Shown one piece after another: positions 24,271 through 27,806 of a stretch of DNA of 35,657 nucleotides. The notes under the pieces were generated by a model. That model worked only from the letters and a program-made list of their open reading frames with translations. It was not told the origin of the DNA and searched no databases. A program made the translations under genes and the position numbers. The stretch comes from a virus (taxonomy: Duplodnaviria > Heunggongvirae > Uroviricota > Caudoviricetes), in the IMG/VR virus record IMGVR_UViG_2541047892_000001; one strand, given 5' to 3'. Every line of letters begins with the position of its first letter. The first letter of the stretch is position 1.

Positions 24271-24594
24271 ATGACTGAACCGAAACAGTCTGGTATTAAA
24301 AAAGGGTTCCTCTTTGGGAGCAGAATCGGAGAGCAGAATAAAACTTACACGCTAAGCTTGGATGCATGTTGTCCAACCGAAGCGATTATAGAGCTGAAAA
24401 ACGTTCTGGTTGCACTTGAAGAGAGAAGAAGTCATTTCGCCAGCGGAGAAAACAACGTCATGCTAATTGGCGATGTGGCGGCGACATCACGATATAAAAC
24501 CGCACCTAATCCTGCGATTCAGTTATCCTTCGACCAACGAATACTGGAAGCGGAATCAGCAGTTCCCAGAACGGTTCGTCCTCACCAGTCTTAA
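24271..24594 (+). CDS. Hypothetical small protein (107 aa), divergent from the lysis operon
   Basis: ATG at 24271 preceded by GGGGAGG with 8-nt spacing; 3' end overlaps the convergent 191-aa gene by 89 nt, so one of the two may be miscalled. Confidence 0.3.
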   Translation: MTEPKQSGIKKGFLFGSRIGEQNKTYTLSLDACCPTEAIIELKNVLVALEERRSHFASGENNVMLIGDVAATSRYKTAPNPAIQLSFDQRILEAESAVPRTVRPHQS

Positions 24595-25081
24595 CTGGGG
24601 CTGCTTCACCCGACCAGTAAAGCCAAGCACGGTGATACAGTTCCAGCACCGGGCAATCACTGTTCAATAACCTCATATCTCCGCGATGCACCTGCTCATT
24701 TGTGATGACTTCATATATCGGTGCCGTTCTTATTTCGTCTTCGCCTCTCTCATCAGCCAGTAATTCCCTGAACTTCCTGACTTCACTCAGATGCTGACAG
24801 GCAAACAGTGACTGATAGCGGGAAGGTTTATCAGGAAAATGGCTACGGCGAACTAACTCAAACACCAGACCGACCAGCAGACTTCTGCTGATTCCACTGT
24901 CATCTTCCATTTTAGGGCCGGGGTTATAGAGATAGTTATACCCGTGACTCGAAAGGCCATTGGGATACATCTGATGAAGAAAAGCGGCCAGTTCTGGCAT
25001 TTCAGGCTCGTATTTTCCGGTAATTACATGACAAGGCGAAGGCAGACGACTAGCGGAATCAAGTGTGTAATACGTTCCCAT
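24506..25081 (-). CDS. Hypothetical accessory protein (191 aa), no recognisable family
   Basis: ORF in the accessory region between lysis genes and repressor; separated from the upstream cassette by a 409-nt non-coding gap. Confidence 0.5.
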   Translation of the reverse strand: MGTYYTLDSASRLPSPCHVITGKYEPEMPELAAFLHQMYPNGLSSHGYNYLYNPGPKMEDDSGISRSLLVGLVFELVRRSHFPDKPSRYQSLFACQHLSEVRKFRELLADERGEDEIRTAPIYEVITNEQVHRGDMRLLNSDCPVLELYHRAWLYWSGEAAPVKTGEDEPFWELLIPLPVFVGRRITESQD

Positions 25082-25490: not shown

Positions 25491-26102
25491 TCAAAAATCT
25501 GGAGAAGGTATATCTATCTGACCGACGTTTCGTAACCACATCTCTTGCTTTGTTTCTTTATTGGTTCGGGCGATATCATTAGCATTGTATCTGCATGTTT
25601 TAACCGCAACCTCACGAACTCGTGCTATAGGAGTATTTGTGTAGAATTTAAGATCTTCCTCTACCGCTCGTATGGCGATAAGCCCTCCACTCTGAAAACC
25701 GCTGGTTACTTTTAAAAGATCAACTCCTTGGTTATAAACGGCATTACATACGTTAGGGAACTCATCTTCTACAGTTTTGGGGATCATCAGCATATCAGGA
25801 AGACCCTGTAACACGTTATCTTCCTTTGGCCTCCATGCCCTTCCCAAAAAAGCTGTTATAGGTTGTGGTGTAGAAAGAAATGCCAATTCTATATAAAACA
25901 AACCACTGTAGTGATCGCGTAACGAATAGACTAGTAAATGATCTTTTCCAGTTTTACTTGCATTGCTAAGTTTTATATCAAATGGTTTTTTCTGGTACTT
26001 AAGCAATCCATCAACTCCCGCATAATAATGCTTTGAAACAGCAACAGAAAGTTGATGTACTTGGTTCGGATAATCTGTTCTATATCGTTTAATTAGCCCC
26101 AT
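25491..26102 (-). CDS. Hypothetical accessory protein (203 aa), third gene of the repressor-linked cassette
   Basis: AT-rich (about 36-40% GC by eye); GAGG ribosome-binding site 6 nt upstream of ATG; 20 nt downstream of the 328-aa gene. Confidence 0.6.
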   Translation of the reverse strand: MGLIKRYRTDYPNQVHQLSVAVSKHYYAGVDGLLKYQKKPFDIKLSNASKTGKDHLLVYSLRDHYSGLFYIELAFLSTPQPITAFLGRAWRPKEDNVLQGLPDMLMIPKTVEDEFPNVCNAVYNQGVDLLKVTSGFQSGGLIAIRAVEEDLKFYTNTPIARVREVAVKTCRYNANDIARTNKETKQEMWLRNVGQIDIPSPDF

Positions 26103-26122: not shown

Positions 26123-27109
26123 CTATTTCAAAATATAACGATATTTACTATCTGGAGTGTTTTGTTGGTCAAGTAATAGAGCTCTACATGGGGCGGTCAA
26201 AACACGGGCATAACGACCATCGGGGTTTATGTTGATGTAACAAGTTTTCCCTTTAACACCATAAGATTCAGGTATTATTGCCTGTGTAGACACCGTGAAT
26301 TTAAGGGTATGCCAGCCCGATTTTTGCTTGTAGCTTGAAACCGAATGGAAATCATCTGAGTACTTATTTAACCCTGGAAACATGCTGCGTAATGCTGGGA
26401 TGGAATCTTCTATTATTTTGTCGTTGGTTTTAATGTTAAAAACGCTGGTTTCAGTAGATGCTACTGCTTTAGCATTTCCCCATTTACCAGCGAACACAAT
26501 CATTCCCACGAAAAATATTGCGACAAGAACTAACGCTCCCCCCAACACTACTACATGAGGCTTCCGGCTTCTGGTTGGTACAGTCGCGACTGATTTTGCC
26601 CCGCTGTCCGATGGAGGTGATAGAGTTTTACTCTCATCACGAATATTCAGCAGATCATCAAAATAACCAAACACAGCCTGCAACTGCTCTTTGTCCAGGC
26701 CTTTAAGATGGGTTGTACCGAAATGCTTCAGACAGTATCTGTCACGGTCAAGACGATACCTAGGGTCAGTAAGCACCATTATTTTGCTGACCAGAAGATT
26801 ACAGTCCTTCATATTCTGGATCTGTTGTGCATATCTCTGGAGGATCTCAACCGCACCATGATAATCAGCCGCAGTCATTTCATTAACTGTTTTGGTATTA
26901 AGTTTCGTGTGGATCGTCATCCATAGTTCGCGCTTACTTTCCCCCAGATCAACCAATTCATCCATCAATCTGTGTAAATCGCGTTTTTGCAGCAACGAAA
27001 TTGGTTGCTGGGCAGAGGGAAGTATGTCAGCAGAATAGTTATGAATGGTAACATCACCGCTGACAACGTTACCCACATCTCCGTTAACTGTTTGCTTCTC
27101 TTTACTCAT
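26123..27109 (-). CDS. Hypothetical bitopic membrane protein (328 aa): N-terminal Gly-rich motif, about 190-aa cytoplasmic domain, one TM, about 110-aa C-terminal domain
   Basis: TM helix HVVVLGGALVLVAIFFVGMIVFAG; start codon overlaps the repressor stop (ATGA); AT-rich. Confidence 0.65.
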   Translation of the reverse strand: MSKEKQTVNGDVGNVVSGDVTIHNYSADILPSAQQPISLLQKRDLHRLMDELVDLGESKRELWMTIHTKLNTKTVNEMTAADYHGAVEILQRYAQQIQNMKDCNLLVSKIMVLTDPRYRLDRDRYCLKHFGTTHLKGLDKEQLQAVFGYFDDLLNIRDESKTLSPPSDSGAKSVATVPTRSRKPHVVVLGGALVLVAIFFVGMIVFAGKWGNAKAVASTETSVFNIKTNDKIIEDSIPALRSMFPGLNKYSDDFHSVSSYKQKSGWHTLKFTVSTQAIIPESYGVKGKTCYININPDGRYARVLTAPCRALLLDQQNTPDSKYRYILK

Positions 27110-27567
27110 TTTCTCTTTGTATTTTTGTTCATTATTCCACCTGTTCCTATGGTTACGTTACCTTTGATAACATTCCCCAGAACATCTCCATGAATAACCT
27201 GTTCCGCCCGTTCTCTGGAGGAGCCAGTCGTCAATGCCGACAAAACTGAACCTTTGACTTGTAACGGTGCTTGCCGGTAGTGCTGAAGTAACTCCATTTC
27301 ATCACGTGATAAAGTTATACCTGATGATTCCCCAGTAAGAATGAACTGTACGTTGGCCCCAATTCTTGCAAAGGCTGCAAGTAACTCACCTCCGGGAACT
27401 GCAACCCCTCGTTCATATTTCCCCCACATTTCTCTTGAAACGCCACAAAGGGCTGCTACTTCAGCCTGCTTGAGTGATAACCGCGAACGCTCAGCTTTGA
27501 ACCGCGACGCGCAAAGAGAATCAAAATTCACATAAACCTCATTGACAATGAGAACAATGGTTCTCAT
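27106..27567 (-). CDS. XRE-family HTH transcriptional repressor (putative prophage repressor)
   Basis: HTH_XRE signature LKQAEVAALCGVSREMWGKYERG; divergent from the early operon; alternative GTG start at 27531 with a GAGG site would leave the operator and early promoter outside the coding region. Confidence 0.8.
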   Translation of the reverse strand: MRTIVLIVNEVYVNFDSLCASRFKAERSRLSLKQAEVAALCGVSREMWGKYERGVAVPGGELLAAFARIGANVQFILTGESSGITLSRDEMELLQHYRQAPLQVKGSVLSALTTGSSRERAEQVIHGDVLGNVIKGNVTIGTGGIMNKNTKRK

Positions 27568-27570
27568 AAT
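27542..27570 (+). promoter_or_regulatory. Early promoter: -35 TTGACA, 17-bp spacer, -10 CATAAT, with an operator-like inverted repeat in the spacer
   Basis: TTGACA at 27542..27547 and CATAAT at 27565..27570; spacer contains ATGAGAAC-aatg-GTTCTCAT (27548..27567); 48 nt upstream of the first early gene. Confidence 0.55.
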
Positions 27571-27617: not shown

Positions 27618-27806
27618 ATGACTTCCGAACAAGTTAAAACTCTCTTCCGTCAGCGTGGTATCACGTTTACCCGCTGGGCCGAAGAACACGGCTACAGCCG
27701 CAATGAGGTCTATCGTGTTCTCAATGGACAGACCAAAGCTCGTTACGGCAAAGCCCATGAAATTGCCGTAAAGCTGGGATTAAAACCCACGTCAAATGCG
27801 GCATAA
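27618..27806 (+). CDS. Small Ner/Cro-like HTH DNA-binding protein (first early gene)
   Basis: 62 aa; AAGGAG 6 nt upstream; layout resembles Ner/Nlp-type regulators (weak, from memory). Confidence 0.65.
   Translation: MTSEQVKTLFRQRGITFTRWAEEHGYSRNEVYRVLNGQTKARYGKAHEIAVKLGLKPTSNAA

Follow-up and report, generated by a model that had tools for sequence, protein, structure and literature searches.

The IMG/VR virus record IMGVR_UViG_2541047892_000001, analysed here as one stretch of 35,657 nucleotides (the window), is an E. coli prophage that falls within the BcepMu/Mu-like transposable type. Our subject is a pair of adjacent genes in its immunity region, which encode an XRE-type repressor and, directly downstream, a membrane protein hereafter called the partner. 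Comparison with related prophages establishes, at the level of sequence and predicted disorder, that these two proteins, encoded on the same transcript, carry partner-specific, co-evolving terminal peptides, one at the C-terminus of the repressor and the other at the N-terminus of the partner.

The immunity region and its two motif-bearing proteins

The minus-strand operon comprises the repressor gene, the gene for the 328-residue partner and two open reading frames (ORFs) of unknown function, and it diverges from plus-strand early genes that start at 27618 and encode a Ner/Cro-like helix-turn-helix (HTH) protein, an IclR-type HTH protein, a DUF3102 protein, an rve transposase and a 397-residue ORF product. 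Because a divergent promoter precedes the Ner/Cro-like gene, we interpret the region as the immunity switch (Table 1). Repressor and partner genes overlap in an ATGA stop/start junction, as the original prediction had described, which implies one transcript and probably translational coupling; the identical 4-nucleotide overlap occurs in Serratia sp. Ag1 and at every locus of the motif class that we term class A.

Table 1. Features of the immunity region, with positions in the window and residues of the encoded protein (pLDDT, AlphaFold2 per-residue confidence score)
Feature	Position	Strand	Basis or remark
Early promoter, TTGACA-17-CATAAT, 11/12 consensus matches	27542-27570	+	Before the Ner/Cro-like gene (27618-27806)
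XRE-type immunity repressor gene, 153-residue ORF	27106-27567	−	HTH_31/HTH_3 matches
HTH DNA-binding domain, residues 15-78	27334-27525	−	AlphaFold2 helices, pLDDT 90-96; Pfam match at residues 22-68
Helical hairpin LSRDEMELLQHYRQAPLQVKGSVLSAL, residues 88-114	27226-27306	−	AlphaFold2
Repressor tail motif QVIHGDVLGNVIKGNVTIGTGG, residues 123-144	27136-27201	−	Alignment, shuffles
Basic C-terminal end IMNKNTKRK, residues 145-153	27109-27135	−	Directly after the tail motif
ATGA stop/start overlap of repressor and partner genes	27106-27109	−	ORF coordinates
Partner gene, 328 residues: motif, Flk_N, transmembrane helix, periplasmic domain	26123-27109	−	phrog_10002; AlphaFold2
Partner N-terminal motif QTVNGDVGNVVSGDVTIHNYS, residues 6-26	27032-27094	−	Predicted disordered, cytoplasmic
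Flk_N helical domain, residues 31-160	26630-27019	−	pLDDT >90; PF27202 precomputed on homologues
Single transmembrane helix, residues 183-211	26477-26563	−	Hydropathy; AlphaFold2 helix 188-207
Periplasmic alpha/beta domain, residues 222-328, two conserved cysteines	26126-26446	−	pLDDT >90
203-residue ORF after the partner gene	25491-26102	−	No Pfam, PHROGs, NCBIfam or PADLOC family match
191-residue ORF, DUF2441	24506-25081	−	phrog_5663; possibly own promoter 25338-25311

The HTH_31/HTH_3 matches bear out the earlier description of the upstream gene product as an XRE protein. Its true start is probably the GTG at 27531, giving a 141-residue product (MNFDSL...): MNFDSL is the start in most repressor homologues, the upstream extension holds a stop codon in several loci, and the early promoter covers the first 12 codons of the 153-residue ORF. 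In layout the protein resembles CI/LexA-type repressors, with an XRE-type HTH divergent from a cro/ner-like early gene at 27618, but it departs from them at the C-terminus, where Pfam matching of the window repressor found no S24 peptidase domain (PF00717) for RecA-stimulated self-cleavage; that domain is restricted to a few distant, longer relatives. The hairpin LSRDEMELLQHYRQAPLQVKGSVLSAL is conserved across the family, including relatives without a tail motif, and is followed by a tail (residues 119-153) that AlphaFold2, run on the monomer, predicts to be disordered (pLDDT ~40). The peptide originally quoted, VIHGDVLGNVIKGNVTIGTGG, corresponds to residues 124-144, and 17 homologue clusters keep a tail of the form HGDVLGNVIKGNVTIG...KRK. 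In most motif classes the motif is succeeded by a K/R-rich end; such ends (KNTKRK, EKKK, NKKNK, GRKKRA) occur in most repressors of the family whether or not a motif is present, and could serve in DNA contact, in lipid contact or as a degron.

The downstream protein was rightly called a membrane protein, given its hydrophobic segment and the helix predicted within it. Most partner homologues terminate in the transmembrane helix, which places the motif-bearing N-terminus in the cytoplasm, the compartment of the repressor tail. The quoted partner peptide, VNGDVGNVVSGDVTIHNYS, spans residues 8-26, and residues 1-30 have a pLDDT of ~44 in the monomer model. Across 24 homologue clusters, reaching down to 44% identity, near-invariant positions number 13 among the first 25 residues versus 48 among all 328. 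The helical domain that follows relates the partner to Flk (Fluke/RflH), which regulates the flagellar type III secretion switch in Salmonella and E. coli and whose N-terminal region is homologous to partner residues 19-147 (NCBIfam PRK10715, E=1.6e-11, profile positions 14-143). The score of 44.1 bits lies far under the equivalog cut-off of 353 bits, so that the partner does not qualify as a full-length Flk; true Flk (MQPISNPGN...) differs in length and lacks the N-terminal motif, and the phage proteins lie outside any flagellar context.

To this architecture the window protein adds the periplasmic domain, which only some partner lineages have. A stand-alone form exists as a lipoprotein (lipobox LSGC; locus L092, 2486-3019) in the Klebsiella phage KP12 record, where the gene immediately upstream, within a BcepMu-like element, encodes an XRE repressor that has no motif; many small proteins (P0136, P0141, P0146 and others) contain the domain too. 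As the stand-alone form exists, we regard the C-terminal domain of the window protein as a periplasmic add-on, perhaps a module for exclusion or sensing that became joined to the Flk_N partner in some lineages. The two downstream ORFs are likely to be lysogeny-expressed cargo.

A 2.8-kilobase (kb) segment has an identical copy in 27 complete E. coli genomes; E. coli B7A and mouse strain 8178 carry the identical module. Its sole match among phage records is Bcepmuvirus PhiKM, at 84.6% identity and over part of the segment only; this related phage carries another cassette at the repressor/partner position. By tblastn, almost no isolated phages encode the window partner, and public annotation of both genes is hypothetical or merely 'helix-turn-helix'.

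Motif match and co-variation across related loci

Local alignment of the two termini, RAEQVIHGDVLGNVIKGNVTI against KEKQTVNGDV-GNVVSGDVTI, gave a BLOSUM62 score of 55, and the quoted peptides with their GDV-GNV-G(N/D)VTI-type pattern are present in both proteins. Whole-protein shuffles scored 29.5 ± 4.5, with 1 of 2000 reaching 55; when only the termini were shuffled, keeping their G/N/V-rich composition, none of 20,000 did so, and core-only shuffles reached the score once in 20,000. In the window, each motif amounts to three or four short V/I-rich strands parted by glycines. The range first assigned to the shared pattern, 27040-27180, had the location right and slightly clipped both motifs. 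Their position at the facing ends of the two proteins also stands; they do not abut the junction, since the nine-residue basic end follows the repressor motif and 5-7 residues precede that of the partner.

At the DNA level, 37 of 60 nucleotides (62%) are identical and the same codon is used at 5 of the 11 identical residues. This modest similarity indicates that the motif is maintained at the protein level and is no recent copy, and on this basis we rejected recent duplication or gene conversion. Programmed frameshift fusion was likewise rejected as a general mechanism: upstream of its ATG the partner frame stays open for only 16 codons, no canonical slippery heptamer was seen, and in other classes the genes are separated by spacers of 3-36 nucleotides or even by an inserted gene.

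The related loci number ~90 in total, made up of 80 viral-contig loci carrying the repressor family, several genome loci and a set of partner-side loci. Across them, XRE-type repressors carry about ten tail motifs, each mirrored at the N-terminus encoded downstream (Table 2). For 13 class representatives the cognate scores sum to 662, against 348 ± 43 when partners are permuted, and none of 20,000 permutations reached the cognate sum. On viral contigs, a matched downstream ORF was found for 35 of the 59 unique repressor tails; survey scores are bimodal, with a ceiling of 34 for downstream ORFs classed as unmatched, and 33 of the 35 matched partners have a predicted transmembrane segment. The pairs reside in Mu-like (rve transposase), P2-like (Ogr/GPA/GpD) and integrase-bearing prophages, with named hosts in Escherichia, Salmonella, Serratia, Yersinia, Morganella, Pectobacterium, Dickeya, Brenneria, Erwinia, Photorhabdus, Klebsiella, Pseudomonas, Mannheimia and Actinobacillus.

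Table 2. Cognate motifs at representative loci (the pairs of L087 and L089-L091 were found by starting from the partner)
Locus	Repressor tail	Partner N-terminus
L002	GNRVAGRDYHE	KNKIAGRDYKE
L004	QIFNGDVSGQFAGNQIIN	QEFNGTAQGQFSSRDIIN
L046	GQVSAENIYNI	GQVAANNIYNI
L062	GHRFALGDYHE	EHRIALGDYYE
L069	TSQTAGRNIKN	TRQSAGRDIRN
L074	VHGGQFSTGTINNY	IHGGQFGQVINNY
L080	IGKVGQIVQADNIETV	IGKVGQLIQTENIGTI
L087	FKDVGQYIEGSVNQAG	FHGGVGQVAEGDINNF
L089	QIVHGDVGQSISGD	QKVYGNVGQMIGRD
L091	VVHGDVGQTVKGNV	IIHGDVGIVAEGDV

The tail is inherited with the partner and not with the DNA-binding domain. Repressors whose DNA-binding parts are only 41-66% identical have tails conserved at 83-92%; within this range, those at 41-46% identity to the window repressor have tails 83-89% identical and adjoin class A partners, a neighbourhood confirmed in Serratia sp. 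Ag1 with the same ATGA overlap. Conversely, repressors with DNA-binding parts 68-70% identical but with other partners have tails only 39-51% identical. The partner bodies are mostly Flk_N with a C-terminal transmembrane helix; those of L022 and L029 carry a CxxC zinc ribbon and a transmembrane helix, and those of L062, L074 and L080 two transmembrane helices, so that what never changes is the N-terminal cognate motif and the membrane anchor. When 1.84 billion representative proteins were searched with a profile, 110 relatives were recovered, among which nearly all phage-type Flk_N proteins start with QxFHGxVGQVAxGD or GxxNRxAGRD[YF]xE, starts that are absent from true Flk; in a 5.8-billion-protein set, only class A relatives were found among the matches listed.

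These comparisons bear on the three origins that had been proposed for the shared pattern. Alignment of homologues found the motif in both families and, where it differs, found both partners differing together, so that the sequences favour a shared interaction motif, conserved on both sides and covarying over about ten classes. A functionless relic of local duplication or of a split fusion, or a chance likeness of two low-complexity ends, is extremely improbable. The two stretches do lie only ~100 nucleotides apart, flanking the gene junction, and the open partner frame upstream of the ATG also speaks for a relic. Yet divergence is seen at synonymous sites, neither protein has a segment better conserved than the motif, which is more constrained than the remainder of either, and independent classes all keep matched pairs, which does not fit a recent or neutral duplication. 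A former fusion finds no counterpart either, with no XRE-Flk_N fusion among the 110 representatives and other pairs spaced or interrupted by a gene, and chance is excluded by the composition-preserving shuffles.

Co-variation also bears on whether the two termini bind each other or dock independently on a third factor shared by both, be it a protease, a chaperone or some other phage protein. Disordered peptides at chain ends typically serve as degrons or adaptor sites, both motifs are predicted to be disordered, and degradation of the Mu repressor by ClpXP is controlled by its C-terminal tail. A conserved host factor would be expected to fix the motif, whereas here a single bacterial order holds about ten classes, whose partners always change together; furthermore, no third copy of the motif was found in the window in any frame, and the loci showed no third gene that co-varies. 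Docking on a third factor is therefore very unlikely, as it fails to explain some ten classes always changing together, and the sequences argue well for direct binding of the two peptides.

Several arrangements at individual loci extend this picture of the pair. At L036 (3001-4520), two tandem XRE repressor genes with tails of the class that we term class C (GHRIAGRDYNE and NNRIAGCDYNE) precede only one class C Flk_N partner, an arrangement suggesting that two DNA-binding proteins can share the same membrane partner. The P2-like loci have a conserved ORF of 88-90 residues (MEHRYISEERPGFD...) directly upstream of the Flk_N partner (L091, 2095-2361; L088, 2232-2504), and at L091 it is placed between repressor and partner. 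A third kind of pair was observed (loci L041, L043, L060, L061 and L067; proteins P0154, P0156, P0166, P0195 and P0205). Its repressors have at their C-terminus a helical domain that looks folded (...RVLKLVVNR) and no G/N motif, and the downstream membrane proteins begin with an amphipathic helix, after which comes a beta-like stretch, IKIKGxxGNINLGTQ. A number of these proteins match the Flk_N profile; their termini are unmatched, and coupling, if any, would be of another type.

Candidate modes of coupling

In the median, a matched segment is 18 residues long and lies 2 residues from the chain end. The segments are enriched in N (3.3-fold), G (2.0-fold), V (1.45-fold), Q (1.4-fold) and, slightly, I (1.1-fold), while L (0.10-fold) and K (0.55-fold) are depleted and P is absent. 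In the window, both motifs are terminal extensions with pLDDT ~40-45 beside domains with pLDDT >90. Thus they share with amyloid-signalling pairs a C-terminal and an N-terminal motif on the products of adjacent collinear genes, an N/G/Q/V/I-rich and P/L/K-poor composition, and a location outside folded domains.

Bacterial amyloid signalling (BASS) motifs were found through such matches between the C-terminus and the N-terminus of adjacent, often overlapping, gene products (10.1101/2020.01.06.895854). The Bell/NLR pairs BASS1-10 (Dyrka et al. 2020, 10.1101/2020.01.06.895854) resemble the present pairs in their ~20-25-residue motifs at the upstream C-terminus and downstream N-terminus, in residue composition, in the many families that match within pairs, and in pseudo-repeats that sometimes occur on one partner. 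They differ in joining Bell/TIR/CHAT effectors to NACHT/NB-ARC sensors in Actinobacteria and Cyanobacteria, whereas here an XRE repressor is joined to a tail-anchored-type Flk_N membrane protein in unicellular Proteobacteria and their prophages. A closer setting is that of Bab/Agp (BASS11), an abortive-infection pair of E. coli ECOR25 for which amyloid signalling has been shown (Ibarlosa et al. 2024, 10.1101/2024.11.07.622273). It too is a prophage-borne E. coli locus of adjacent genes with a glycine-punctuated terminal motif and one membrane-acting partner, but Bab is a small Bell-like cell-death protein with a C-terminal motif and Agp a 1094-residue TPR-GreA/B-C-PIN sensor with an N-terminal one; the two form a defence system in which neither protein is a repressor, whereas the window pair lies inside the phage's own immunity switch. 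HET-S/NWD2 of Podospora anserina, in which templated folding serves as the signal, likewise has adjacent genes and one repeat against two pseudo-repeats on the partners, and differs in being a eukaryotic pair of a HeLo pore-forming effector and a NACHT-WD sensor with no homology to the window proteins.

Since its domains differ entirely from the NLR/Bell repertoire, we assign the pair to no BASS family; by analogy it may work like a BASS pair, or is at least built like one. New here are the pair of protein types and the biological setting in which the matched-terminal-motif principle appears. No description of the pairing was found in the literature on amyloid signalling and prophage repressors, on Flk_N/PF27202 or on the BcepMu repressor, where incomplete coverage makes this an absence of evidence only.

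Membrane sequestration of transcription regulators is established for ECF sigma/anti-sigma pairs, and lambda RexB is a membrane protein of a lysogeny operon. Both offer parallels, in a regulator co-transcribed with a membrane protein or in a gene directly after the repressor, and in the idea of a membrane protein that holds or releases a DNA-binding protein. They have no homology to the present pair and act through folded domains and not through matched short terminal peptides; we know of no diversifying motif classes in either kind of system.

Drawing these lines together, we consider it on balance probable that a co-evolving homotypic motif pair of the beta type couples the repressor to the co-transcribed inner-membrane protein, probably for control of the repressor. 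The cognate pair would consist of beta-prone, G/N/V/Q-rich terminal peptides of roughly 18-22 residues, by which the disordered tail of the repressor and the disordered cytoplasmic N-terminus of the partner would recognise each other directly. Recognition would proceed by like-with-like beta-sheet (cross-beta) pairing as in amyloid signalling motifs, a mode to which composition and gene geometry point with moderate force. Most likely the membrane protein would capture or template repressor tails and thereby lower or end repression, providing a de-repression route for a repressor without a LexA-like self-cleavage domain, and the many motif classes would keep the pair of each prophage private. 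That the partner controls the repressor by capture or templated inactivation is only hinted at, in that the repressor has no S24 domain, motif diversity would insulate co-resident prophages, and the periplasmic domain of the window partner could receive a signal.

In its strongest form this coupling would be a prion-like induction switch, in which an envelope signal clusters the membrane protein, its motif nucleates a cross-beta fold that templates repressor tails, and their irreversible removal leads to lytic growth, the ten or so non-matching classes acting as private channels between co-resident prophages; we regard this version as possible though doubtful.

Several observations weigh against control of the repressor through amyloid-like pairing. 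The XRE HTH and Flk_N domains fall outside the NLR/Bell/TIR/CHAT repertoire, so that the pair lacks the sensor and effector partners of known systems, and PADLOC assigned no defence family to the partner or to the two downstream ORFs. AlphaFold2 monomer models show both motifs as low-confidence coil with no beta structure. About half of the class C partners appear, by a loose pattern, to carry two pseudo-repeats and the repressors one; by the precedent of HET-S/NWD2, in which the two-repeat protein is the effector, this would make the membrane protein the target and not the controller. Co-expression of a repressor and its own antagonist from one operon would need an extra signal. Finally, some motif-bearing Flk_N proteins lack a matched neighbour within 2.5 kb, as at L088, where no motif-bearing repressor was found within that distance and the partner is an orphan.

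A stable tether that involves no amyloid is an unlikely alternative, in which a 1:1 or small-oligomer intermolecular beta-hairpin or zipper would permanently hold part of the repressor pool at the inner membrane without any switching, for example for co-translational assembly, for protection from proteolysis or to place immunity at the site of DNA entry. Co-variation, modular inheritance and the constant membrane anchor would suit any direct interaction, the ATGA overlap brings the repressor C-terminus beside the partner N-terminus during translation, and the basic end that follows the motif in most repressors fits as well. Yet composition and gene geometry resemble signalling amyloid motifs and not typical heterodimer interfaces, some partners carry pseudo-repeats, and a membrane-bound repressor pool has no obvious use.

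The pseudo-repeats, together with the position of the genes, also raise the reverse assignment of roles, an abortive-infection or exclusion system in which sensing would fall to the repressor, for instance on titration or attack by a superinfecting phage, and its tail would then template the N-terminal motif of the partner, a membrane-damaging effector as in HET-S/NWD2 or Bab/Agp. A lysogeny operon, directly after the repressor, is the classic position of exclusion genes, as for lambda rexAB; the partner is always a membrane protein, class C partners often seem to have two pseudo-repeats like HET-S-type effectors, and Bab/Agp sets a precedent in E. coli prophage defence islands. We nonetheless hold this to be quite unlikely, as chromosomal Flk is a regulator and not a toxin, PADLOC returned no match, and a partner body that can be exchanged for a zinc ribbon or two transmembrane helices would be unusual for an executioner domain.

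Implications for prophage immunity

Most temperate phages of the type represented by the window have small repressors without a self-cleavage domain, and how these are switched off is largely unexplained. If the coupling proposed here holds, a co-evolving peptide pair would form a direct link from the cell envelope to the lysis-lysogeny switch, and matched terminal motifs, until now associated with immune and cell-death pairs of the NLR type, would also have a part in the transcription control of ordinary enterobacteria. The roughly ten natural pairs of ~20 residues should be useful for deriving specificity rules of the beta or amyloid type or for engineering, and the association provides a first functional lead on the Flk_N domain.

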